NCBI GenBank assembly: GCA_965198945.1
Contig: CBDAQI010000011.1
Location: 1-64,000, forward strand
DNA from: Thermodesulfobacteriota bacterium
GTDB taxonomy: Bacteria; Desulfobacterota_D; UBA1144; Nemesobacterales; Mycalebacteriaceae
Direction of reading: 5' to 3'
Length of the DNA: 64,000 bases
Shown: positions 825 to 46,246 of the stretch, one piece after another
Position numbering within the stretch: position 1 is the stretch's first letter
How the letters are laid out: each line of letters begins with the position of its first letter
Program-made: the position numbers and the translations under genes
Notes under the pieces: model-generated
Seen by the model: the letters and a program-made list of their open reading frames with translations, nothing else
Told to the model about the DNA's origin: nothing
Database searches by the model: none

Positions 825-1343
825 ATGGCAAATGCAAGATGGAATTTAAGGAGCACGGGTCAGCCGGTTGAGGTCAGTCTGCCTGCTGCGGGCATCTGTT
901 GCAATGTCGGTTCATATTCTGTTTCTGAAAACAGAATGCTGCTGATTAAGGCGAATTTAAGTTATAGGCTTTTAGGAGTCAGTGGCACAAGCTCCGGAAT
1001 GACCGGAACACAAAGTTTTGCGGCTTTCGTTTCATCTGACTTTCTTAGAAAGGGAGGGACTAAATACCTTGACCCGCGAAAAACACAATTTTCTTCATCA
1101 AATCCGGACATGCAAAATTTTCAAATAAAACTGGGTGTTAAAACCGAAGGTGACAACCATCAGTTGCAGATTTTCAAGGATCAGGCGCCGGATTTTTCAG
1201 CGGAAGGTGTTTTTTATATTCCAAGCAACAGCATCAGTGTGGAAATTTCCGAGATTGATATGAAAGACCAAAAGGCTTCCATAGCGACTTCAAGAATTGC
1301 CGATGGAACTGCCACATCCGGCAAAATAGAGTCAACGCTGTAA
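825..1343 (+). pseudogene. Fibre-like family copy 1, truncated
   Basis: N-domain aligns with copies 2-4 (SENRMLLIKA, TQSFAAFVSSDFLRKGG, HQLQI). The frame breaks in the stalk: ..IADGTATSGKI, then VNAVTSTN in a shifted frame. RBS GAGGTGG precedes ATG 825. Confidence 0.7.
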
Positions 1344-21118: not shown

Positions 21119-23886
21119 TCACGGGCCGGTTTGGATTATACACGAAAGGGTTATAGGTTGTGCTCCATCTGTTAAGTCCGGAGCATTTGCCACGCTTGCA
21201 GTATGAGCAGCGATGCAGATATAAGTATTATTGTCCCTATATCTGACCATGGAAGCCGAAGAAGATGAGCTTGCGGCTTAATCTGGTACTCCGTCAACCC
21301 ATACTTTAGCCCATTGTAATCCCGGCACACCCTGCGGGCAGGCGGATCCGGGTGGCCCCTTCTCGGCTTATACGGGATACGCCTGGCTCCAGCCTGAATT
21401 GGAATTGTCATGCGGGTCATGAGTAAACCATGCCTGATATACTGTATGAGTTGCGAAATTGATGCCAGTGGGTTCCGTCTGGCTCCAGTCGCCAAGACTG
21501 CTGGTGATCATTTTTGTTGAATGATCGTAAACAATCGCCTCGGTGGGCAGAAACGGAGCGTTGCTTTCGCCGGGGCCTTCTTCCACTGACTGAAAGATAT
21601 AAACCCTATAGGGGCCTTGAGCTCCGCGTATACTTGAAATATCTCCTATCTTTTCAACCGTAACGGCTCCGTCCGCAATCTTATCGGTTGTAATTGTGCC
21701 ATTAGCAATGTTCTCTGATGTAACACTTGCAACATCCCGCATGGTCATATTGGTATTGAGATGATAAACATCCAGCCATATCTTGTTATGGTCTACTCCG
21801 CCGGAAGACTGCGGCCAATAAGCAAGTAGTGTATAGTTTGTAGTTCGGCCGATAGCAACGGGTATTTCACCACCTGCCGAGTTTGTAAGAGACATTGTTA
21901 GTTGAGCAGCAGAGTCAAAGTTTGCACCTGCAGTTGTAGCTGGCAATGCTCTTAGCTTGGCAACGGAAATCCATTGATCGCTTTCTATTTTTCCTTCATC
22001 CCATACGCTTCCCATATCAAGAATAAGCCATCCGTCTACAGGGATTTCTATGCCGGTATTGACCGAACTGGTTCGGGGATCTAACACAGCAGACTGTCTA
22101 AATTCCCCAATTTTTGTTATAGCGCCACCCACAGCGCCGGAGATATTTCCGACAAATACCCATGAGGTGGGAGTTCTGACTCCGCTGTCGTCTGTTGCCT
22201 GCACAAAAATATCGCCACGGCGCACTGTCTGACGAGTTGTATAGGCAACGGAGTTTTCAGTAATTGTGAATCTTGTTCCAACCTCACTGCCGGACAGGGG
22301 TATGTCCCTGATAGCCAGTGCGCAGCCTACGGAATCTGTTCTTTGAAAGTCCGATGCTCTGTCAAAACAGACAACCATGCCACCCGCGGCATAATTTGGT
22401 GCGTTCAATTCCGCCGGGTTTCCTTCATTGTCAAAGCCTAGGAACTTGTTCGCCGTGCCATGGGCAAGTTGCACAAGTCCGACTGAATCGTCTGGCACCT
22501 TTGATGCCGGAATGGTAGCCGTATTGCCAGTCTCTGCCCAGTCAGCAACATTTGCCTGAATCCTGGCATCAACCTGTGACTGATTCAAAAGGTTTGAGGT
22601 ATCGGGAATCTCACTGTCCCGCGCTACACTGTCGGGGATTTTGCTGTCCGGTATTGTGTCGGTATTTCCTTCAGTCGCCCACTCGGCCGCATTGGAAGAC
22701 GAACCCTCCTTTTCCACCGGAATGCCGTTCTAGTCAAAGCCCAGAAACTTATTCGCCGTGCCGTGCGCAAGCTGTGCAAGGCCAACGGAGTCATCGGCTA
22801 TCTTGGATTGTGTTACCGCACCGTCAGCAAGTTTCGGATTTGTAACCGCACCGTCAGCGATTTTGGGTGTTGTAACCGCTCCATCGGCGATGTTAGTCTC
22901 AATAACAGCGGAGTTGGGTATTTTCCCCGTCACTATCGCTCCGGGCGCTATGTGTATGCTGCCCACAGCATTAGGGGCTATCGTTCCGGGCGTAACAGCT
23001 CCGGGGTTTATGTTAACCGACTCCACAGCATTGGGAGCTATCTTCCCCGGTGTAATAGCTCCGGGGGCTATCTGTATTGAGCCCACGGAACCGTCCACTA
23101 TATTGCCCGAAGTTACGGCATTGGGAGCCAGCTTTCCTGAAGTTACAACGCCGTCTCCGAGTTCAAGCGAACCCACGGCTCCGGCGGCTATGGTGCCCGA
23201 ATTCACCGCGTTGGGAGCCATCTTTCCAGCAGTAACGGCTCCAGGTGCAATCTGCAATTCACCCACAGTTCCCCGCGCTATGTTAGTGGAAGTTACCGCA
23301 TTGGCGCCTATCTTCTCAGAAGTAACAGCCCCATCTGCAATTTTCTGGGTTGTTACCTCTCCGTCGGCAAGGTCGGGTTTAACCTCAAAAATCTCCACCT
23401 CTATATCGTCGGTTGGAATAAAAGAAAAAAGACCTTCTCTAAAGACCCCCGGAATTTCCTTCTCTTTTGCACCCTCCCGGCACTGGTCAACGGAATTTCC
23501 CCCCTCTTTTGAATCATCGGACGCCACACCGCACCTTGCAATCCGCAACTGATGACCACCCCATTGAGCTTTTACCGCAAGTTTCGTGTCAAAATTACGC
23601 AAAACCTCTCTCGCAATATTAAACTGCCCGCATTCCAACTCCAGGTATCTGATTCCTCTTTCTCTCAGAAAGTTGGATGAAACCATACCGGCAAAAGTTT
23701 GTGTCTCTATCGGTGGGTATAGTGCTCTGGAGAAAGGATGGAACACCCTGTATTTCAATCGTGCCGTAATCATCAGCATCCTGTCTTCCGGAACCGCATA
23801 GTCTCCGCGATATTGTGGTAAGTGTCTTCCTTGGGTAATTCCACATCACCGTTAAACACACTGTTTAGTTTCCAATTTGTTCCCAT
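21119..23886 (-). pseudogene. Fibre-like family copy 2, multiply disrupted long allele
   Basis: ATG 23886; 2-nt insertion near 23807; 20 IAxGAVT decapeptides; in-frame TAG at 22730-22732 where paralogues have GAG; continues as ORF 21368..22717; decayed tail past TAA 21368 (GPPGS..PQG, VRYRDNNTYICIAAHT). Confidence 0.8.
22772..23371 (-). repeat. 20 tandem 30-bp (10-aa) coding repeats [IL]AxGAVTxxK
   Basis: LADGEVTTQK IADGAVTSEK ... LADGAVTQSK IADDSVGLAQ, counted from the translation. Confidence 0.9.
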
Positions 23887-23955
23887 AGTATTATCCTCCT
23901 ATGAATTAAATTTTGGTTATGCACTGTTATAGGGAAAAACTGTTTTTGTTGGCAA
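23887..23955 (-). promoter_or_regulatory. Family promoter/leader (TTGCCA-18-TATAAC, RBS AGGAGG)
   Basis: Near-identical to 42807-42875 and 29853-29921. Confidence 0.7.
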
Positions 23956-28325: not shown

Positions 28326-29435
28326 ATGCGTAATTTGCTGAAAACAGAGGTGTTTTTTACAGTTCTGTCTTTATTTTTATGTCTCAATGCTTTTGCCGGA
28401 GGAGAACACGAGACCGGTATACAGCTGAATAAAGAAGGCTTCAGACCCATTGACGCCGACGGCCATGCGCCCATTGGTGTTATGGGTGACCATACACACA
28501 ATAAAGGCGAATGGATGCTGTCTTATCGCTATATGTATATGGATATGTCAGGAAACCGCAGCGGCAGTAAAGGGATAAGCACTGAGAAGATTCTTGATAT
28601 GCCAAACCGTTTTTTCGGAAAACCCGGACAGCCTCCGAAATTGCGTATAGTGCCGACAGACATGAAGATGAGTATGCATATGCTCGGTGCAATGTATGCG
28701 CCTGACGACAGGGTAACAATGATGGTTATGCTGTCATATATGGAAAAATCCATGCGTCATATCACCTTCAACATGCCTGGAACAAGCAGGGTCGGTAATT
28801 TCAAAACAAAAGCAGGTGGCATTGGTGATACGAAACTGTCGGCTCTGATAAGGTTGTTTGATGATGACATTCACAATCTGCATCTTAACATGGGGTTGAG
28901 TCTGCCTTCCGGTTCAAATACAAAGCGCGGCGATGTGCTGACACCCATGGGAACATACATGAATGTGCGGCTGCCATATGCAATGCAACCGGGTTCCGGC
29001 ACATTTGACCTGTTGCCGGGGCTGACTTATACCGCAAGGCTGAAACCATTTGGTTTGGGAGCGCAATATGTCGGCACTTTTCGCGCCAACAGGGATAACG
29101 GTTACAACCTTGGAGACAAGCAGGATATAAGCGCATGGATTAGTTACCAGTGGCGGTCCTGGATAAGCATTTCCGGCAGAATGGTTTATCTGTACCAAGA
29201 AAATATAGAGGGGATTGACCCGCAGATAGTCGGCCCGGTGCAAACCGCAGACCCGAATAACTACGGCGGTGATACTCTTACATTATTGTTTGGGGTTAAT
29301 TTCGCCGGTCAAACGGGCCTGCTTCGCGGCAACCGCATTGCGTTGGAAGCCGGAATACCCGTATATCAAGACCTGAATGGCACACAACTTGAAACAGATT
29401 TTACAATAACCGCCGGATGGCAATACACATTTTAG
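28326..29435 (+). CDS. Outer-membrane beta-barrel transporter-like protein (HAPIGVMGDH family, Met/His rich)
   Basis: Signal peptide, HAPIGVMGDHTH, RLPYAMQ.GSG, C-terminal WQYTF. Confidence 0.8.
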   Translation: MRNLLKTEVFFTVLSLFLCLNAFAGGEHETGIQLNKEGFRPIDADGHAPIGVMGDHTHNKGEWMLSYRYMYMDMSGNRSGSKGISTEKILDMPNRFFGKPGQPPKLRIVPTDMKMSMHMLGAMYAPDDRVTMMVMLSYMEKSMRHITFNMPGTSRVGNFKTKAGGIGDTKLSALIRLFDDDIHNLHLNMGLSLPSGSNTKRGDVLTPMGTYMNVRLPYAMQPGSGTFDLLPGLTYTARLKPFGLGAQYVGTFRANRDNGYNLGDKQDISAWISYQWRSWISISGRMVYLYQENIEGIDPQIVGPVQTADPNNYGGDTLTLLFGVNFAGQTGLLRGNRIALEAGIPVYQDLNGTQLETDFTITAGWQYTF

Positions 29436-29630
29436 CGTTTCTGTCATTTATGAGGCGGAAGAAGAATTTTGATGTCGGTGTGGAGTTTAACTACAGCACG
29501 GGGTTGAAGGGAGACATAACGGTTCAGAACAGGAACTATGAGTTGAATCCCGCTGATGAAAAGGGTGTTTTGTTTACAATGAGGTTTGTGATGTAGGGGA
29601 TGCTTTTCTCTTCATTTCTGCATTTTCTCT

Positions 29631-29755
29631 GTCATTCCCAATTCTTTCCCCGTCATTCCCCTTTCTCCCGTCATTCCCGTGGAAACGGGAATCCAGTATT
29701 CCGACAAGTCCTGCCATAAACCCTCGGATTCCGTGTCAGAGGCAGAATGACAGGG
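29631..29755. repeat. dRS3/REP-like palindrome with stuttered left ends plus a degenerate inverted partner
   Basis: GTCATTCCC three times, full copy at 29670-29696, partner CGGATTCCGTGTCAGAGGCAGAATGAC. Confidence 0.8.
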
Positions 29756-29921
29756 GGTATATTGGCCATTCTTTAATTCAATAATGGGTTCATTTCTCAT
29801 CAACAAAACCCCTGAAGCACAGCTCCTTATCTCTTTCCATACCTCCTTTATTTGCCAACAAAGATAGTTTTTTCCTATAACAGTGCATAACCAAAATTTA
29901 ATGCATAGGAGGAAAACAACT

Positions 29922-30779
29922 ATGAATAATTGGAATCTAACAAATGTAAGCGATGTGAGTGTGGACTTGTCCACCGCAGACGCTTACCACAATGTCGGGA
30001 ATTATACGGTTCCCGAAGACAGGATGCTGCTGATTACGGCGAGTTTGAACTATACGCAGTTGGGCGGCTCCGCAACGTTGGAGACGCAGAGTTTTGCGAC
30101 TATTGTTTCGTCGGACTTTCTCAGAGAAGGAGGAATCAGATATCTGGAACTGGACAGGGGGCAATTTGCTTCTTCAGACACGAATCTGCACGATTTTAAC
30201 GCAAGGTTTATGTTGAAATCGCAATGGGGCAGCCATCAGCTGCAGATTTCAAGAGAGGATAACGGGCAGTCGCCCTTTGCTCCGGTGGACAGCGCTGTTT
30301 ACTCTGAAAGCAACAGTGTGAGAGTGCGGGTTTTTGAAGTCGGTTTGGAGTTGTCCGATGATGTCGTAACTCAATCCGCAATAGCCGATGATTCGGTCGG
30401 GTTGGAACAGCTTGCGCATGGGACGGCGAACAAGTTTCTGGGCTTTGATGAGAGCGGCAACCCGGCGGAGAAAGATGCTCCATCCGATACTACTTTATGG
30501 AGAGGTGATTGGACTGCCGGCGATTACATAGTGGGGCAAATGGTTCAACATGCCGGCAACATATATTTATGTGTTTCGGCAAGAACTTCTGCAAATACAG
30601 AGAACCCTTCAGCAGATACGAACAGCTGGTCCCCTCTTTCAGGCGGAAGCTCAACAGGAGGCGGAGCGTTGACGGGCGGGAGTTACAATGCCGCAACGGG
30701 CGCTCTGACTTTTACAAGACAGGGACTTGCGGACATTCAAGTTAACATCGGAGTAATACCGACAATCAGGAGAGTGTAA
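29922..30779 (+). CDS. Fibre-like family copy 3 (N-domain, 2 stalk repeats, linker, CBM5/12-like module)
   Basis: RBS AGGAGG; VPEDRMLLITA; DDSVGLEQLAHGTANKFLGFD; WRGDWTAGDY..GQMVQH.GNIYLC. Confidence 0.8.
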   Translation: MNNWNLTNVSDVSVDLSTADAYHNVGNYTVPEDRMLLITASLNYTQLGGSATLETQSFATIVSSDFLREGGIRYLELDRGQFASSDTNLHDFNARFMLKSQWGSHQLQISREDNGQSPFAPVDSAVYSESNSVRVRVFEVGLELSDDVVTQSAIADDSVGLEQLAHGTANKFLGFDESGNPAEKDAPSDTTLWRGDWTAGDYIVGQMVQHAGNIYLCVSARTSANTENPSADTNSWSPLSGGSSTGGGALTGGSYNAATGALTFTRQGLADIQVNIGVIPTIRRV

Positions 30780-30781
30780 AA

Positions 30782-31399
30782 ATGGGACTGCGATTTGAAA
30801 ACTTTGGCATTGATACTTTTGATATAAGATTGCCTGACGGCTACAGCCCATCTGACGGAGACCTTGAAATACAAGGAATACAGGGCGGTAGCTCCACACA
30901 ACGCCTTAAATCCACGGACGGGAGCGGGGCAAGATACAACTGGAATGGGAATGTTTTGTCTCAGGCGTATAAATCTCTGGTTATACCCGCAAATCGCTGG
31001 AGGCGAGCCTCGGTGGGAAACTGCATAGGAGTTAGGTCAACAGCCGTAAACGATAGGAGGGTTGAAGTAACATCCGTAACAGCCCTACCCATAAAGGTAA
31101 GACATAAACAGAGCGGTTCATTGTTGGATTTTCTTCTTTGTATTGAAGATTTGAACAGACAAACCAGAATAAGTGTTGCAGTTGACAACGGCCGATATTC
31201 ACATGCCATTCGCAATGTTTCCGCCTTTACGATTCAAGGAACTGCTTACCAGTTATTAACCAATTGGAATCACGGTGATATGACCTGGAAGTATGGTGAT
31301 TTGGCAGTGAGTCAATCTAATTTTGAATTTCCCGGACAGGAAGTAATTTTGTCTTTTCCTTCCGACCAGCCGTTTGAGTTTGTTCCGTATCCGTCATGA
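30782..31399 (+). CDS. Stand-alone (or frameshift-separated) C-terminal domain of the fibre-like family
   Basis: CIGVRST..LPIKVRHK..DF.LCIE and FPSDQPFEFVPYP match copy 4 CLGIRST..LPVKIRRK..DF.ICVE and LPTDQPFEFVQYP. Confidence 0.75.
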   Translation: MGLRFENFGIDTFDIRLPDGYSPSDGDLEIQGIQGGSSTQRLKSTDGSGARYNWNGNVLSQAYKSLVIPANRWRRASVGNCIGVRSTAVNDRRVEVTSVTALPIKVRHKQSGSLLDFLLCIEDLNRQTRISVAVDNGRYSHAIRNVSAFTIQGTAYQLLTNWNHGDMTWKYGDLAVSQSNFEFPGQEVILSFPSDQPFEFVPYPS

Positions 31400-36140: not shown

Positions 36141-36632
36141 CTATCCTTTGAAGTATTGATTCAGATTATCCTGCCCGACCCAGTTCTGTTGTTCTTCATC
36201 TTTTTGCACCTTGTAGTCTTTGTGCCATCCAAGGTCATCTCCGGGGCCCGGCTCCCTGTCTCTCTTGTCAAAAATCGCCTTGAAGGTTGAAAAAATCCTC
36301 CTAACTTTCTTCCCTTTGCATGAAGGGCACTTAGGAGCCGGCTCACCGGGATCCATCAATTCGCTGAATTTGAAGTCTTTCAGTTCAAGATAGAGACCCT
36401 TGCCGCTTTCAAGCGAGTATTTGAATCTGCGAACATTGCGTGACGGGGTTTTCTCTCCGAGAGAAAAAAGTTTCCCTCCGGTTTTTTCTTTTGTAACTTC
36501 TATGTAGATAAATCCCGGATTCTCACGGGAAATCTCAGAAGCGTTTTTTTTGTTAAGACCGCCGACAAGTTTTGAGATGTCTCTGTTAAACTTGTCCATG
36601 CAGCCTTCGCATTCATACTCATAAAGGGGCAT
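36141..36632 (-). CDS. FmdB-like zinc-ribbon protein with large insertion
   Basis: MPLYEYECEGC ... FSEL ... CPSCKG..RRIFS. Confidence 0.8.
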   Translation of the reverse strand: MPLYEYECEGCMDKFNRDISKLVGGLNKKNASEISRENPGFIYIEVTKEKTGGKLFSLGEKTPSRNVRRFKYSLESGKGLYLELKDFKFSELMDPGEPAPKCPSCKGKKVRRIFSTFKAIFDKRDREPGPGDDLGWHKDYKVQKDEEQQNWVGQDNLNQYFKG

Positions 36633-39943: not shown

Positions 39944-40975
39944 ATGAATACAAAACTTTTGAAAAAACTTTGTGACATTCCCGCAATTCCCGGAGACGAG
40001 GGAGCGGTCAGAGATTTTGCCGTTTCTGAGCTTGCGAAATATGCAAAAGACATATCCGTTGACACAATGGGAAACGTTATAGCCCATATAGGTGGAAAAG
40101 GCGGAAAACTTGTTGTTGATGCCCACATGGATGAAGTGGGTTTTATGGTGAGCCACATAGATGAAAAAGGGTTTGTGAGGGTTCACGCGCTCGGAGGCAT
40201 GGACGCGAAGGTTTTTTACGGACAGCGGCTTGTTGTTCACGGTCTGAAGACCCTTTATGCCGTTGTTGCGGCAATCCCTCCCCATGTAAGCAAAGCGGGC
40301 GGCGCCAGTGGCGTTCCGGAAATTGAAGACTGTGTTCTTGACCTTGGTCTTTCGGCGGACAAGGTGAGAAAGTATGTGAAGGTCGGGGACGCCGTAACCT
40401 TTGACACCGAGCTGCGCGAAACTGAAGACGCTGTGATTTCGCGCGCCATTGATGACAGAGTCGGAATTTTTGTCATCCTTGAAATGCTCGCCGCAAAACC
40501 GAAACCGAGTTGCGACTTGTTTGTTACTCTGACGGTGCAGGAGGAACCCGGTTTGAGAGGGGCGCGTTTGATCACGCCGGCGCTTGAGCCGGATTTTGTG
40601 CTCGTTCTTGAGGGAACGGTCACAATGGATTTGCCCGGAATCCCCGCGCACAAAACCCTTGCCAATGTTGGCAAAGGACCTGAAATCCGGCTTTCAGACC
40701 GCTATCTTGTGGCGGACAGGGAATTCAGTTTCTTCATAAAATCCGTCGCGGACAAGAAAAAAATTCCGTCTCAAATCACAGTTAAAAAAGCCGGCGGAAC
40801 AAACGCGACCGCGATGCAGGTAACGGGCCGGGGAAGCAAAGCGGCGGTTGTTTCCGTGCCGACAAGGTATTTGCACAGCCCGAGTTCCGTGGCTTACAAG
40901 AGCGACATTGAGGCCACAATAAAACTGGTTAAGGGCGTTGTTGATGGTATGGGAGATTTTCATGCAAAACGGTAA
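39944..40975 (+). CDS. M42 family metallopeptidase
   Basis: AHMDEVG, AIDDR.G, TVQEE.GLRGA, GGTNA, RYLHSP. Confidence 0.93.
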   Translation: MNTKLLKKLCDIPAIPGDEGAVRDFAVSELAKYAKDISVDTMGNVIAHIGGKGGKLVVDAHMDEVGFMVSHIDEKGFVRVHALGGMDAKVFYGQRLVVHGLKTLYAVVAAIPPHVSKAGGASGVPEIEDCVLDLGLSADKVRKYVKVGDAVTFDTELRETEDAVISRAIDDRVGIFVILEMLAAKPKPSCDLFVTLTVQEEPGLRGARLITPALEPDFVLVLEGTVTMDLPGIPAHKTLANVGKGPEIRLSDRYLVADREFSFFIKSVADKKKIPSQITVKKAGGTNATAMQVTGRGSKAAVVSVPTRYLHSPSSVAYKSDIEATIKLVKGVVDGMGDFHAKR

Positions 40976-41957
40976 AGAACTCGGAAGGATGAAAAAAATT
41001 AAACTCAGGGAAATATGGAAAGACGAGGCAGGAGATTTTACTCCTTGGCTTGCCGAGGAAGAGAATCTGGCTCTTCTCGGCGACACAATAGGGCTTGAAC
41101 TGGAACTTGAGGGTAGAGAGACGAGTGTCGGAGATTTCAGAGCGGACATTATGGCGCGCAATACCGCGGACGGAACCGTTGTTTTGATTGAAAACCAGTT
41201 GAAACGCACAGACCATGTCCATTTGGGACAGTTGATGGCTTACACCGCGGGGCTGGAGGCGGCCACAGTCGTGTGGATTGCTTTAAGGTTCACAGATGAA
41301 CACATGGCGGCTTTGGACTGGCTAAATGAAAATACGGATGACCAATTCAGTTTTTTCGGGCTGGAAGTAGAGTTATGGCGAATAGGAAACAGCATTCCCG
41401 CGCCAAAATTCAATATAGTTTCAAAGCCTAATGACTGGAGCCGGGAGGCAAGGGTCGGCGCTCAAAAAGAGTTGTCTGAGACCGATAAGTTTCGCCTTAA
41501 CTATTGGAAGCATTTTAGAAAATATATGGAAGACCAGAACACTAAACTGAAATTGCCAAAACCTAATAAGCTACATTATATGACTTTCAGCATAGGCAGG
41601 AGTGATTTCAAATTGGTTACTGTAATCCGCTTCCAAAACCCAAAAAGGATCCAGTGTCAATTTGAGGCTTGGAGAGATTATTCGGGGCCGATGTTCAGAT
41701 ATCTTGAGGAGAACAAGCTGGAAATTGAAAAAGAATTCGGAGCCAGTTTGGATTTTAAAAAAACCAAAAAGGGCGGTGGTATGTCTCTGTCTGTATTTTT
41801 GCACACTGACCCCCAAAATAAGAATGAGGCCGAAAGGGAAAAACAGTTCAAATGGTTTGAAGATAATCTCATGAAGTTTGACAGGATTTTCCGCCCATTG
41901 GTAAAAGATTTCAATCCCGATGAATGGGAAGAATACGAAGAAGATGAGATTGAGTAA
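40962..41957 (+). CDS. DUF4268-type protein with N-terminal PD-(D/E)xK nuclease-like domain
   Basis: LRE.W.DEA.DFTPWL, VG.FRADI, IENQL..TDH.HLGQL..Y.AG. Confidence 0.82.
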   Translation: MQNGKELGRMKKIKLREIWKDEAGDFTPWLAEEENLALLGDTIGLELELEGRETSVGDFRADIMARNTADGTVVLIENQLKRTDHVHLGQLMAYTAGLEAATVVWIALRFTDEHMAALDWLNENTDDQFSFFGLEVELWRIGNSIPAPKFNIVSKPNDWSREARVGAQKELSETDKFRLNYWKHFRKYMEDQNTKLKLPKPNKLHYMTFSIGRSDFKLVTVIRFQNPKRIQCQFEAWRDYSGPMFRYLEENKLEIEKEFGASLDFKKTKKGGGMSLSVFLHTDPQNKNEAEREKQFKWFEDNLMKFDRIFRPLVKDFNPDEWEEYEEDEIE

Positions 41958-41959
41958 AA

Positions 41960-42292
41960 ATGTGTGCGGCAAGCCTTTCGGGTATTTTCAAGACTTTTCT
42001 TTCCGATTTTCCCGGAGATAAACCGGATTCAGTTTTCACTGATTTTGAAATCGCCGTCAAAAACAAAAAATACGACATTCAGGACATGACAATAATTGAG
42101 GCGGTTCTGAAAGAGGACAGAGACTCTCTCAAAGAGTCTTTTATTGAAGGATTTTCAAACTATGAAAAGTCCGCCGGTTCGGCTGACTGGAACGCGGAAA
42201 AGTCCGCAAAGGCGATTGAGATTTTTCTTGCGTCTCTTGACGGTCTTGTGAACTATTACTATAGCAACACAATTGCGGGTCAGTTTTCCTGA
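41960..42292 (+). CDS. Hypothetical protein (110 aa)
   Basis: Tightly packed ORF between the DUF4268 gene and gloA. Confidence 0.7.
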   Translation: MCAASLSGIFKTFLSDFPGDKPDSVFTDFEIAVKNKKYDIQDMTIIEAVLKEDRDSLKESFIEGFSNYEKSAGSADWNAEKSAKAIEIFLASLDGLVNYYYSNTIAGQFS

Positions 42293-42304
42293 AAGGAGTA
42301 ATTT

Positions 42305-42688
42305 ATGAAATACCTGCACACAATGATAAGGGTCGGAGATTTGGAAAGGTCAATCCGTTTCTATACAAATGTTTTGGGTCTTGTTCATCACCGCACAACG
42401 GACTATCCGGACGGCAAGTTTTCACTCGCTTTTCTCGGTTACGGTAACGAAACCGAGCCGTTTCTTGAACTCACTTACAATTACGGAGTGACTGAATACG
42501 AACACGGCGGCGGATACGGGCATATGGCGTTTGCAGTTGAAGACATATACGCCGCGTGTGAAAAGATTTCCGAACTTGGCGGAAAGGTTGTTCGCGCTCC
42601 CGGGCCGATGAAACACGGCAAAACTGTGATTGCCTTTGTGGAAGACCCTGACGGGTACAAAGTTGAGCTGATAGAAAGAAATTCATAG
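42305..42688 (+). CDS. gloA: Lactoylglutathione lyase (glyoxalase I)
   Basis: [28 protein letters not shown]. Confidence 0.96.
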
Positions 42689-42806
42689 ATACCGCATATT
42701 TCTCAAAAAACACTCCTGAATAATCTCTTTTTCAAACGCGGCAAGGCAACTGCCGTCTCATAAGCCCCTTTGAACAAACGGGCTTCTTATTTTTTTCTTC
42801 TTGTTT

Positions 42807-42875
42807 TTGCCAAGGGAAACAGTTTTTCCCTATAACAGTGCATAACCAAAATTTAATTCATAGGAGGATAATACT
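42807..42875 (+). promoter_or_regulatory. Family promoter/leader
   Basis: TTGCCA 42807-12, 18-nt spacer, TATAAC 42831-36, then AGTGCATAACCAAAATTTAATTCATAGGAGGATAATACT-ATG. Confidence 0.7.
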
Positions 42876-44381
42876 ATGGGAACAAATTGGAAACTAAACA
42901 GTGTGTTTAACGGCGATGTGGAATTGTCCAAGGAAGACACTTACCGCAATATCAGAGACTATGCGGTTCCGGAAGACAGGATGCTGATGATTACGGCACG
43001 ATTGAAATACAGGGTGTTCCATCCTTTTTCCAGAGCACTATACCCACCAGCAAAGACACAGACTTTTGCCGGTATGGTTTCGTCCAACTTTCTGAGGGAA
43101 AGGGTTATCAGATACTTGGAGCTGGAATGCGGGCAGTTTAATATCCAGAGAGCGGTTTTGCGTGATTTTGACACGAAACTTATGGTAAAAACTCAATGGG
43201 GCAGCCATCAGCTGCAGATTTCAAGAGAGGATAACGGGCAGTCGCCCTTTGCTCCGGTGGACAGCGCTGTTTACTCTGAAAACAACAGTGTGAGAGTGCG
43301 GGTTTTTGAAGTCGGTTTGGAGTTGTCCGATGATGTCGTAACTCAATCCGCAATAGCCGATGATTCGGTCGGGTTGGAACAGCTTGCGCATGGGACGGCG
43401 AACAAGTTTCTGGGCTTTGATGAGAGCGGAAATCCGGTGGAGAAAGACGGTTTGTCTTCTACTGCAAGCGGAACATTAGAATGGCGTAATGAATGTGCGG
43501 CGGGTGAATCATATTCAGGCACGGCTCCACAATCATTGGTTAGATATGCATCTGACGGCAATGTGTATATCTGCACTCAAAGTCATACTTCAGTTGCAAC
43601 ACAAACTCCGTCTGCAATTACAATTCCCGGTGCCACTTGGCAGATGGGTGTAGAGCGGCACTGTTTGGGTATTCGTTCAACAACTGTTGCTGATACAAGA
43701 GGTGCTGTTACTGAAATTCCTTCGTTGCCTGTTAAAATTAGAAGAAAAAACACAGGAGCTATTTTTGATTTTTATATATGTGTAGAGGCGCAAAGATCTG
43801 TTGGAAGTGGACACGGGTTACTTGGGATAACTTTATCAATTTGTGATGGTAATTCCGCCGCACCTTTTGACGATGGAAATGCCTTTAATGGTAGAAATGG
43901 AGTAAAACGACTTACTATCGGTGATATAGAAATTTCTCCTTTTGATGATTATCGTCAGTTCAGAGAGAATATGTATCACATTTATGAAGACGATACTCCG
44001 GGTGATAGATCCCAATTTGAGAATTTAGGCGCAGACGGTTCAGATGTGGTTATTTCTCTGCCGACAGACCAACCGTTTGAGTTTGTGCAGTATCCGGCTG
44101 TAAACGTTCCCGGCAGCACAGAGGGCAGTAACTTTTGGCAATTATTCAGCGGGCCGGGAGACGGATTAAAAAACACTTATTCGGCTTTTATAAGAAGTTC
44201 TTCAACTCCTTCCGTGCCGACAAGCATATCTGTAACAAACGGAGATGTTACAACCGTGGCCGGAACCGGCTGGTCAACTTCAGTGCCGTCCGGCAGTGCC
44301 AAGTTGTGGGAGGCGCGGGTGCGCTCGTCAACGGTCAGTGGAACCGTTACCGGAGGATTTACACTCATTCCATATGGATAA
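42876..44381 (+). CDS. Fibre-like family copy 4 (intact, mosaic)
   Basis: N-domain, DDSVGLEQLAHGTANKFLGFD linker, CBM-like VRY..GNVYICTQSHTS, DQPFEF domain, FIRSSSTP..PT..GW..VP.G..LW motif. Confidence 0.85.
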   Translation: MGTNWKLNSVFNGDVELSKEDTYRNIRDYAVPEDRMLMITARLKYRVFHPFSRALYPPAKTQTFAGMVSSNFLRERVIRYLELECGQFNIQRAVLRDFDTKLMVKTQWGSHQLQISREDNGQSPFAPVDSAVYSENNSVRVRVFEVGLELSDDVVTQSAIADDSVGLEQLAHGTANKFLGFDESGNPVEKDGLSSTASGTLEWRNECAAGESYSGTAPQSLVRYASDGNVYICTQSHTSVATQTPSAITIPGATWQMGVERHCLGIRSTTVADTRGAVTEIPSLPVKIRRKNTGAIFDFYICVEAQRSVGSGHGLLGITLSICDGNSAAPFDDGNAFNGRNGVKRLTIGDIEISPFDDYRQFRENMYHIYEDDTPGDRSQFENLGADGSDVVISLPTDQPFEFVQYPAVNVPGSTEGSNFWQLFSGPGDGLKNTYSAFIRSSSTPSVPTSISVTNGDVTTVAGTGWSTSVPSGSAKLWEARVRSSTVSGTVTGGFTLIPYG

Positions 44382-44424
44382 TCCAATTGCAGGACAATGG
44401 TAACGGTTGAGGTGAAACCAAATT

Positions 44425-44450
44425 GAAGGGGAGGCAAAAACCTCCCCTTC
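44425..44450. terminator. Hairpin between convergent copy 4 and uvrC
   Basis: GAAGGGGAGG-CAAAAA-CCTCCCCTTC. Confidence 0.7.
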
Positions 44451-44507
44451 GGTTTATTCAGGCGGTTTAATAATGTTTTTGAGAGGATTCTGTGGCCGCC
44501 TTTTATA

Positions 44508-44539
44508 CTGGATTCCCGGCCCGTTTTCACAAAAATGAC
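44508..44539. repeat. Degenerate dRS3/REP-like palindrome
   Basis: CTGGATTCCCGGCCCGTTTTCACAAAAATGAC. Confidence 0.65.
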
Positions 44540-44599
44540 AGTGGTTTAGACGTCACTGAAAAGAATTTTGCTTATGACGCACCTTATATTTTTTCATTC

Positions 44600-46246
44600 C
44601 TACCTGAAAAACTGTTTCGCCCTGAGAGTTTTGTGATAGCCAAGAGCGAAACGGTGCGCTTCGTCCCTTATTTTCATCAGCAGAAAAAGCCCTTCCTTGT
44701 TTTTGACCGGCGTCCAGGGAGTTTTTCTGCCGGGTGTGTAAATTGCGTCTTCCCGATCATTTTTACGCCCCTTGGCAATGGCGGCAATGTCAGCCGCGCC
44801 GTAAACGCCCGCGTTCTTCATTGTATCAACCGCCGCGGACAACTGCCCCTTGCCGCCGTCTATGAGAAGCAGGTCCGGCAACTCCCAGCCGGGTTCGTCC
44901 ACTCTCTTGAACCGTCTTGAAAGCATCTCTCTTATTCCCGCAAAGTCATCCTGCCCGGAAACGGTTTTTATTTTGTAGCGTTTGTAACGTTTTTTGTCCG
45001 GTTCGGCGTCGATAAATCTCACGAGCGACCCGGTTGTCTCCCTGCCTTGGGTGTTTGATATGTCAAAACATTCTATTGAACGGGGAATTTTTGACAGTTT
45101 CAGAGATTTCTTCAGAACTGACAGGACATCCTTATCCTTTTCTTCCCTGAGCTGTTTTCTTCTGAGAGTCTCCGCAGCATTTTCTCCCGCGAGACGCAGA
45201 AGTTTCATTCTCGCACCTCTTTTCGGGGCGACTATTTTTACCGAACCGCCGCGTTTTTCCGCCAGCCATTCTTCATATATATGTTTGTACTCCGGAGCGG
45301 AAGGAACCACTATTTCAGGCGGAACCCCTCTGCCGCCATCATAAAACCTTCCCAGAAACTCTCCGAGAGCGCCGGAAAAGCACACTCCCGTGTTTTTCGC
45401 CGAGAGCTCCGCCTTGTCCACAATTCCGCCGTCCCTCTGGAAAAGAACCACAAACTCAAAATTTTCTTCGTCCGCCGCCATCTCTATGATGTCTTTGTCC
45501 GTGAAACTTGAAGGGGAAATCTTTTCAAATCCGCCGTTTTCTCCGAGCGCTTCCAACTGGTCTCTATAGTATGAGGCGTCTTCGTATCTCATTTCATCTG
45601 AGGCGTTTCTCATCTTTTCTTTAAGAAATTTTACGGCGTTTTTCCCGTCGCCTTTGAGAAACGCTTCCGCTTTTACACACAGAGCGCGGTATTGCGTTTT
45701 GTCTATCATGCCGGCGCACGGGCCTGAGCAGAGACGCATATCATAGTTAAGGCACGGGCGGTTTTTGTGTCGTTTGAACTTGTTGTTTGAGCAGTCTCTC
45801 ACTGAAAAAAGTTTGTGGACGAGTTTCGCATTTTTTTTCAGCCCGCCGCCGCGTGAAAACGGTCCGAAATAGGATGCGCCATCCGCATTTACACGCCGGG
45901 TTATTGAGAGCCGCGGGAATTCCTCGTTCATTGAGAGCCGCAGAGAGGCGTAGGTTTTATCGTCTTTCAACTGTATGTTGAACTTCGGTTTGTGTTTTTT
46001 AATGAGTGAGTTTTCAAGTATGAGGGCTTCGTGTTCGTCGCCGGAAAGGATGTAATCAATATTTGCCGTTTCACCCATGAGGTATGAAATCTGCGGCCTT
46101 GAGTCTTTTTTCCGGCTGAAATACGATCTTACGCGGCTTTTCAAATTTGCCGCTTTACCGATGTAAATAACCCGCCCGCCCGAGTTTTTCATCATATAAA
46201 CACCGCAGGAAGACGGCAGTGATTCATAATTCATATTCTCCGGCAT
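44600..46246 (-). CDS. uvrC: Excinuclease ABC subunit C (no C-terminal HhH)
   Basis: GVY..IYIGKA..RV.SYF GIY-YIG domain, Cys cluster, UVR domain, ECFDIS, LIDGGKGQ, RDEAHRFA. Confidence 0.95.
   Translation of the reverse strand: MPENMNYESLPSSCGVYMMKNSGGRVIYIGKAANLKSRVRSYFSRKKDSRPQISYLMGETANIDYILSGDEHEALILENSLIKKHKPKFNIQLKDDKTYASLRLSMNEEFPRLSITRRVNADGASYFGPFSRGGGLKKNAKLVHKLFSVRDCSNNKFKRHKNRPCLNYDMRLCSGPCAGMIDKTQYRALCVKAEAFLKGDGKNAVKFLKEKMRNASDEMRYEDASYYRDQLEALGENGGFEKISPSSFTDKDIIEMAADEENFEFVVLFQRDGGIVDKAELSAKNTGVCFSGALGEFLGRFYDGGRGVPPEIVVPSAPEYKHIYEEWLAEKRGGSVKIVAPKRGARMKLLRLAGENAAETLRRKQLREEKDKDVLSVLKKSLKLSKIPRSIECFDISNTQGRETTGSLVRFIDAEPDKKRYKRYKIKTVSGQDDFAGIREMLSRRFKRVDEPGWELPDLLLIDGGKGQLSAAVDTMKNAGVYGAADIAAIAKGRKNDREDAIYTPGRKTPWTPVKNKEGLFLLMKIRDEAHRFALGYHKTLRAKQFFR

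Follow-up and report, generated by a model that had tools for sequence, protein, structure and literature searches.

The copy 4 locus and its gene family

The DNA studied here is a stretch of 64,000 nucleotides (positions 1 to 64,000 of contig CBDAQI010000011.1, or C11; called the window below) from a Mycalebacteriaceae genome of 14 contigs and 1.39 Mb, with a completeness of 95.28% and a contamination of 0.01%. It carries copy 4, an intact gene from a family of putative fibre-like proteins, of which eight loci were found genome-wide by tblastn and a profile of the N-terminal domain (N-domain), four of them inside the window. Based on segment identities and a maximum chi-square breakpoint, copy 4 is chimeric, as the initial annotation of this DNA had claimed, and it is a multi-tract mosaic that is likely to have arisen by recent non-reciprocal recombination between the dispersed paralogs of the family.

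Copy 4 is flanked by a glyoxalase-like gene, which ends at 42688, and by uvrC, which ends at 44600. In two genomes of the same genus (G001 and G002), these two genes are convergent neighbours separated by short gaps only, therefore the 1.7-kb copy 4 cassette is an insertion in the lineage of the present genome. All eight family loci are embedded among housekeeping genes, and no integrase or transposase was found among the flanking genes scanned. The genome gave no matches to the phage hallmark families Phage_sheath_1, Phage_capsid (HK97), Baseplate_J, TerL_ATPase and Phage_portal, the only phage families searched. The gene family was absent from all 40 other genomes searched, five from the same genus and 35 from the same order. 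Within the genome, no cassette fragments were found outside the eight loci, the only other matches being stalk-like repeats in an autotransporter adhesin.

The family proteins follow a common plan: a beta-rich N-domain of about 110-170 amino acids, a variable neck, a stalk of 2 to about 20 ten-residue 'xIaxGAVTxx' units of the kind known from phage tail fibres, a conserved linker (..DDSVGLAQLAHGTANKFLGFDxxGNP..) and variable C-terminal modules. The positions of the copies and of the parts of copy 4 are collected in Table 1.

Tracts and breakpoints in copy 4

The segment at 43194-43429 matched copy 3 (30222-30457) over 236 bp with a single mismatch at 43282 (A versus G, AAC versus AGC), in full agreement with what had been read from the letters initially. 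The same segment was identical to copy 5, which lies outside the window, at 235 of 236 positions, while copy 2 agreed at only 105 of them (44.5%) and is not homologous here. Upstream, from 42876 to 43193, copy 4 was identical to copy 2 at 292 of 318 positions (91.8%) and to copy 3 at 197 of 303 (65.0%), which bears out the earlier description of this part as close to copy 2 and far from copy 3. The leader, described as identical in copies 2 and 4, was 100% the same over all 64 bp in copies 2, 4 and 6, and at two more loci it showed 95.8% identity over 48 bp. Over a longer range, a 449-bp alignment of copy 4 with copy 2 (23983-23535 on the minus strand) had 90% identity; the alignment of copy 4 with copy 3 reaches 81% only because the patch falls inside it.

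A maximum chi-square test on 245 informative sites with 10000 permutations located the switch in the interval from 43193 to 43202, within CAATGGGG; the observed value was reached in none of the 10000 permutations. The left breakpoint therefore lies in the conserved QWG block, where it had been proposed. The right breakpoint had been placed in GGCTTTGA-GAG (GFDE), and this part of the claim did not hold, as the actual right end is at 43459/43460. The GFDE block is the point where copies 3 and 5 diverge, and the peptide PVEKDGLSS that follows it, previously taken as a return to copy 2, is encoded by sequence identical to copy 5 (43430-43459, 30/30). Because the identity to copy 5 runs 30 bp past the GFDE block, the tract is 266 bp long and ends after PVEKDGLSS, and its closest partner is copy 5. 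At the left junction, 8 bp are perfectly identical within a block of about 75% identity, and beyond the right junction there is no homology among the present copies.

The patch is not the only shared tract in copy 4. A 5' tract was common with copy 6 and a 3' tract with copy 5, and the two flank, together with the patch, an N-domain of the copy 2 type and a middle part specific to copy 4 (Table 1). The GC content switches along the tracts, from 0.443 to 0.523, 0.432 and 0.502. Homology to other loci starts at 42782 for copy 2 and at 42806 for copy 3, and homology with copy 5 stops at 44482. The leader escaped a consensus promoter scan because its second hexamer ends in C, and its reading as a promoter was made by eye only. 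No Rfam match was found in 42600-44700 at E<=0.1.

The stalk units were counted in the protein sequence because they have diverged at the DNA level; Tandem Repeats Finder detected no more than 2.5 DNA copies for the stalk of copy 2 and no repeat for that of copy 4. The counts given at first, 20 in-register ten-residue units for copy 2 and two for copy 4, were reproduced. The further proposal that a 20-unit stalk had been swapped for the shorter one would follow from copy 2 only, as copy 6, with the same type of N-domain, is short-stalked.

Table 1. Family copies, parts of copy 4 and other features discussed in the text (positions are those of the window unless a contig is named)
Feature	Position	Strand	Remarks
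Copy 1	825..1343	+	Short member; N-domain and one or two stalk units
Copy 2	21368..23945	-	Two disabling lesions, a 2-bp frameshift and an in-frame TAG; same leader as copy 4 and same type of N-domain; 20-unit stalk
Copy 3	29922..31399		Split over two frames
Copy 5	contig C4		Split over two frames
Copy 6	contig C13		Open frame
Copy 7	contig C6		Open frame
Copy 8	contig C5		Open frame
Copy 4 cassette	42782..44482	+	Stretch homologous to other family loci
Conserved leader	42817..42880	+	64 bp; TTGCCA-18 nt-TATAAC, AGGAGG and ATG, read by eye
5' tract identical to copy 6	42817..42944	+	128 bp, perfect run, against 85.5% identity to copy 6 over 42876-43193
Copy 4 coding sequence	42876..44381	+	Intact, 501 amino acids, from open reading frame (ORF) list and translation
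N-domain core, copy 2/C13 type	42876..43193	+	91.8% identity to copy 2, 85.5% to copy 6, 65% to copies 3 and 5
Left crossover block, CAATGGGG	43194..43201	+	Last copy-2-type informative site 43193, first copy-3-type site 43202
Patch: neck, 2-unit stalk and conserved linker	43194..43459	+	Common with copy 3 to 43429 and with copy 5 to 43459
Lone patch difference	43282	+	A in copy 4; G in copies 3 and 5
Copy-4-specific middle	43460..44162	+	703 bp; distant likeness to the second ORF of copy 3 only (27% at the amino acid level)
3' tract common with copy 5	44163..44482	+	Last 74 codons, stop and about 100 bp of flank; 313/321 identical, perfect core of about 235 bp
Terminator-like hairpin	44425..44450		Within the 3' tract of copy 4
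DUF4268 gene	40938..41957		Between an MgsA-like gene and a small ORF at 41954
Subtilase-like gene fragment	29435..29593		53 codons
Subtilase-like gene L001	contig C4, 4710..6590		
Subtilase-like gene L002	contig C13, 4226..6249		Split over two ORFs
Subtilase-like gene	contig C10, 39966..41993		
REP-like hairpins	552, 24338, 29673, 62034, 62163, 63048		ATTCCC-N8-GGGAAT
YadA-type adhesin	contig C12, 139213..144809	-	1640-residue open frame and 311-residue C-terminal anchor frame; one frame break

Age of the patch

Synonymous divergence (dS) and its ratio to non-synonymous divergence (dN/dS) were computed over N-domain codons 29-106 for copy 4 against each partner. The values were dS 0.22 and dN/dS 0.29 against copy 2, dS 0.44 and dN/dS 0.27 against copy 6, and dS of about 1.0 and dN/dS 0.34 against copy 3, so that the N-domain has a dN/dS of about 0.3. 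The lone difference in the patch is non-synonymous. With one difference in 236-266 bp against an N-domain dS of 0.22 (copy 2) to about 1.0 (copy 3), the patch is far younger than the gene around it, and the earlier claim of a recent transfer stands.

Read depth over the locus

Three public runs of one study (X1, X2 and X3) hold the locus as Logan contigs, which break exactly at the repeat borders predicted from the family alignment. The single-copy flanks had a depth of about 14 in X1 and of 2 to 3.2 in X2. The patch (43194-43429) was at 52.2 and 8.83 in X1 and X2, respectively, the leader tract (42817-42944) at 39 and 9.28, and the 3' tract (44175-44474) at 34.8 and 3.64. Both copy-4-specific parts had zero differences from the window, with depths in X1 and X2 of 16.1 and 4 for 42998-43177 and of 14 and 3 for 43430-44204 (43400-44204 in X2). 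The k-mer depth of the patch, roughly three-fold that of single-copy sequence (ratios of 3.7 in X1 and 2.8 in X2), fits about three exact copies, namely copies 3, 4 and 5, and not two, which argues against a collapsed repeat. The right junction, 43459/43460, is spanned by record 13 of X2 (43400-44204).

A joint in X1 from 43447 to 44067 was considered as a deletion form and rejected, as one of its sides is only 30 nt long and it fits the contig of copy 3 itself. The second sample, X3, has contigs on 42238-42855 and 44167-44917 and none on the body of copy 4; with a depth of 2-12 and contigs of read size, it shows neither absence nor an alternative allele.

Mosaicism in the other copies

Near-identical tracts of 128 to 1487 bp within otherwise diverged copies show that mosaicism is a property of the whole family and not of copy 4 alone. 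Copies 3 and 5 share 1034 bp with four mismatches (99.6%; window 29442-30475, plus strand), including a 3' fragment of a subtilase-like gene that is complete upstream of copy 5. Copy 3 is itself a recent chimera, since this near-exact stretch takes in part of a neighbouring gene. Copies 7 and 8 share 1487 bp at 100% (contig C6, 609-2095, for copy 7), comprising the upstream region, the N-domain, a long stalk, the linker and about 55 codons more, after which the identity falls to about 60%. The upstream neighbours of these two copies differ, and copy 7 ends 119 bp from the end of its contig.

In copy 2, two lesions were found: a 2-bp insertion after codon 27 (window 23803-23886), which cuts off the MGTNWKLNSV start from what follows in the gene, and a TAG that stands in frame where GFDE has its E (window 22717-22732). 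As both lie outside homopolymers they look real, and copy 2 looks like a pseudogene that has kept an intact leader. The reading frame changes once in copy 3 (window 30746-30790) and once in copy 5 (contig C4, about 36200-36310), either through genuine frameshifts or through slips of the assembly. Taken together, both ORFs of copy 3 are collinear with copy 4.

The subtilase-like gene next to copy 5 belongs to a second paralog family of lipoprotein-type subtilases (a weak Peptidase_S8 match) with a beta-barrel-like C-terminus, present as three copies and the 53-codon fragment. Their C-terminal halves are 91-96% identical and their N-terminal halves 34-39%, and three of the four sequences directly adjoin fibre-family genes (copies 3, 5 and 6).

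The genome also contains 33 hairpins resembling repetitive extragenic palindromic (REP) sequences, where about 0.05 would be expected per 393 kb of shuffled sequence. They are found upstream of several family copies and not of copy 4, and a 151-bp element with the hairpin is 100% identical at three loci. For the DUF4268 gene, which lies close to copy 4, tblastn found nothing in syntenic stretches of 8 kb from G001, G002 and G003, and this gene may be another lineage-specific insertion.

Protein architecture and relatives

The copy 2 stalk matched 18 PHROG families, mostly tail fibres (phrog_892, E 1.2e-41; phrog_28766, E 1.2e-28), while copy 4, with two stalk units, had no Pfam match and no PHROG family at E<=0.01. 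The copy 7 stalk showed 33-39% identity to tail-fibre-like proteins from phages, among them marine podophages (cyanopodophages), and a sequence search of the PDB with copy 7 gave a single weak stalk match (E 0.0032). A cyanophage match that appeared to reach into the N-domain (query residues 57-150) was rejected as repeat-driven and not due to homology. Copy 3 had a weak CBM_5_12 match under the Pfam cut-off.

Stalk segments that resemble the family repeats are also present in a giant trimeric autotransporter adhesin of the YadA type, encoded on contig C12 (Table 1). As similar repeats occur in this adhesin, the stalk repeat is a general fibre element.

The N-domain had no Pfam or PHROG match, and among 5.8 billion clustered proteins it found paralogs from its own genome only. 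Its profile, run over 1.84 billion representatives, returned 11 proteins: six paralogs from this genome, one metagenome fragment and four unrelated proteins. The single outside relative is a fragment of 136 amino acids on a 2196-bp metagenome contig; matches P0008-P0011 were rejected as relatives, being repeat or NACHT proteins. Patterns from the profile gave 30 matches in viral_contigs, 101 in metagenome_contigs and 55 in genome_contigs, none of which was confirmed, and a tblastn search of 50,697 phage records with residues 1-147 of copy 4 was negative at E<=1. The middle part of copy 4 (43460-44162) had no Pfam, PHROG or phage match either.

Structure searches were similarly empty. The best ESM Atlas score, 0.77, was under the lead threshold. 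Foldseek with the low-confidence model against viral models gave no match at E<=0.001, and VIA-align over 48,161 chains had a best Z of 6.4, from generic beta-sandwiches, with none at Z>=8. A literature search on Dadabacteria tail fibers found nothing related. The proteins would be trimeric fibre-like binding proteins with exchanged tips.

Origin of the copy 4 mosaic

The explanation that we consider likely is recombination between the paralogs of this one genome, by gene conversion or segment replacement through the general recombination machinery. We infer this pathway; RecA is present in the genome. Copy 4 is built from 128 bp of 5' sequence identical to copy 6, followed by the remainder of the copy-2-like N-domain, the 266-bp tract common with copy 5, its own 703-bp middle and a 321-bp tract common with copy 5, with the surviving junctions sitting at module borders. 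The same process would also have given the pairs of copies 3 and 5 and copies 7 and 8. As to direction, parsimony suggests that a B-type neck moved into an A-type gene, because both other A-type copies (copies 2 and 6) carry another neck.

Several points weigh against this explanation. With 8 bp of identity on the left and no homology on the right, the junctions are ill suited to one conversion of the RecA type, therefore more than one event, illegitimate joining or a donor allele that was not sampled and that covers 43194-44482 is needed. No Logan contig among those listed spans 43193/43194, the nearest ones ending at 43177 and starting at 43194, so that the left junction depends on the assembly alone; a 50-nt string over it had 0 matches in metagenome_contigs. 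At 43282, G is the sole base in the Logan contigs from X1 and X2, which leaves the A of copy 4 unconfirmed. In addition, the runs that hold the locus best may be the source of the assembly itself and would then not be independent support. For the proteins, no signal peptide was seen, the N-termini (MGTNWKLNSVFNGDVELSKED.. and relatives) having no hydrophobic leader by inspection, with no predictor run. No confident fold was obtained either, as copy 4 folded alone had a mean predicted local distance difference test score (pLDDT) of 30.4, and the N-domain folded with its seven paralogs a pLDDT of 49.4 and a predicted template modelling score (pTM) of 0.47.

An import from another strain could answer the first of these points and, though unlikely, has a chance that should not be neglected. 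Here, 43194-44482, from the QWG block to the terminator, would have arrived as one piece from an unsampled copy-5-type allele that already carried the middle of copy 4, and copy 5 of this genome would be its nearest surviving relative. This agrees with copy 5 being the nearest relative of both tracts that flank the unique middle, with the lack of a donor for the 703-bp middle in this genome, and with a right end of the 266-bp tract that has no flanking homology. However, the family turned up in no other genome and, save for the one fragment of 136 amino acids, in no metagenome contig, and a crossover at QWG would still be required.

It is improbable that the mosaic is an artefact of assembly or polishing, in which the patch was threaded in from copy 3 or copy 5, or in which a similar sequence in copy 4 was overwritten by short-read polishing. 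Exact repeats of 0.13-1.5 kb between the family loci would favour such errors, and the exclusive G at 43282 and the left junction that no listed contig spans could be read in the same way. However, the depth of the patch in both runs fits three exact copies, and copy-4-specific contigs stand on either side of it at single-copy depth. A false join is also unlikely at this place because the copy 2 and copy 3 types share just eight identical bases at the junction, too few to cause one. Moreover, mis-paired exits from a repeat would alter the 3' part after the patch, and not place a 5' end of the copy 2 type against a neck of the copy 3 type.

The likeness to antigenic variation or tail-fibre shuffling that was pointed out initially raises the question of a programmed variation system, such as pilE/pilS-like conversion from silent cassettes, an invertase shufflon or a diversity-generating retroelement (DGR). 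Such a system is not supported and we regard it as very improbable. In its favour, there are very recent tracts in at least three pairs of copies, and three copies have frame breaks or stops and could be donors only. In gene-conversion systems of antigenic variation, such as Neisseria pilE/pilS, Borrelia vlsE and Anaplasma msp2, the present family would find parallels in its short, near-identical tracts, shared among the dispersed copies of a putative surface-binding protein, and in its disabled copies. In contrast to them, the family has neither one expressed locus that draws on promoterless cassettes nor a cassette store, and there is no G-quadruplex (G4) motif or similar element near copy 4. 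Seven of the eight copies have an N-domain with its own ATG start (that of copy 2 being frameshifted) and five share the conserved leader, therefore they are not promoterless silent cassettes; there are also no orphan cassettes outside the eight loci.

For the other systems, the enzymes searched for were not found. The genome had no match to Resolvase, which argues against invertase switches and shufflons of the Gin, Cin or Rci kind, and the scanned flanking genes contained no recombinase, tyrosine recombinases not having been searched for. Copy 4 has no flanking inverted repeats, only weak pairs and the terminator hairpin. A DGR is contradicted by the absence of RVT_1 matches in the genome and by a patch that differs from its partners at one site and not at many adenines. 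Rhs and CdiA proteins vary by the displacement of orphan cassettes, and they resemble the present family in having a conserved border block, here QWG and the GFDxxGNP linker, at which divergent downstream modules join. Unlike them, the family carries neither toxin nor immunity modules, is without orphan 3' cassettes and lacks Rhs and CdiA domains.

Strong purifying selection on the protein segment, instead of a recent transfer, could be thought of since the patch ends in the linker, the most conserved protein block of the family, but it has next to no likelihood, as selection at the protein level cannot explain identity at all synonymous positions over 236-266 bp when, in the comparison with the same partner, the adjacent constrained domain reaches a dS of about 1.0 and copies 2 and 6 carry an unrelated neck sequence (44% identity).

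Comparison with other fibre systems

Recombination between paralogs, which we prefer as the origin of copy 4, is in itself ordinary; the protein family and its setting are new. The segments of mosaic phage tail-fibre genes are exchanged between the tail-fibre genes of unrelated phages. The present family resembles them in its conserved N-terminal part, repetitive stalk, exchangeable distal parts and sharp identity switches at module borders, and its stalk repeats match PHROG tail-fibre and cyanopodophage proteins. However, its members are single cassettes between chromosomal housekeeping genes in a genome without the five phage hallmark families searched, the N-domain and the C-terminal part of copy 4 have no phage match, and the exchange took place between paralogs of one genome.

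Closer in setting are the mosaic adhesive trimer (MAT) fibres of Bdellovibrio bacteriovorus, which comprise 21 chromosomal paralogs related to phage fibres (PMC10769870). Their N-domain is described there as conserved, beta-rich, about 130 amino acids long and without a structural homologue, and it is followed by a fibre stalk and diverse C-terminal tips, for which the authors suggest 'tip swapping' (PMC10769870). The MATs have a signal peptide before the N-domain, and 13 of the 21 carry an S74 protease/chaperone domain (PMC10769870). Both families consist of many chromosomal paralogs (21 there and eight here) with a beta-rich N-domain, a stalk and variable C-termini. In contrast to the MATs, the present proteins show no signal peptide on inspection and gave no match to S74 or any other Pfam domain, and their host is a small-genome bacterium that is not known to be a predator. 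The profile of their N-domain also found no MAT-like protein among the 1.84 billion representatives.

Meaning of the family

The host is apparently a small-genome, free-living marine bacterium. We can only tentatively, and with more doubt than confidence, propose that the eight genes form a phage-derived fibre repertoire owned by the host, set on a new N-terminal anchor, which arose and expanded within a single species and in which necks, stalk lengths and tips are re-assorted among the loci. The fibres could then serve as MAT-like recognition fibres, or as mimics that disturb the assembly or adsorption of podophages with similar fibres.

A genome of about 1.4 Mb here devotes about 1% of its DNA to eight copies of a near-unique family, and the tracts shared between them are so alike that the exchange must be recent. 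As the exact junctions are known, the family is useful for understanding which places in a fibre allow modules to be joined. Should the proteins be surface fibres or fibres that interact with virions, they would be a compact natural case of modular fibre diversification outside phages. The family also has a bearing on the ways in which streamlined marine bacteria vary the proteins that they expose.

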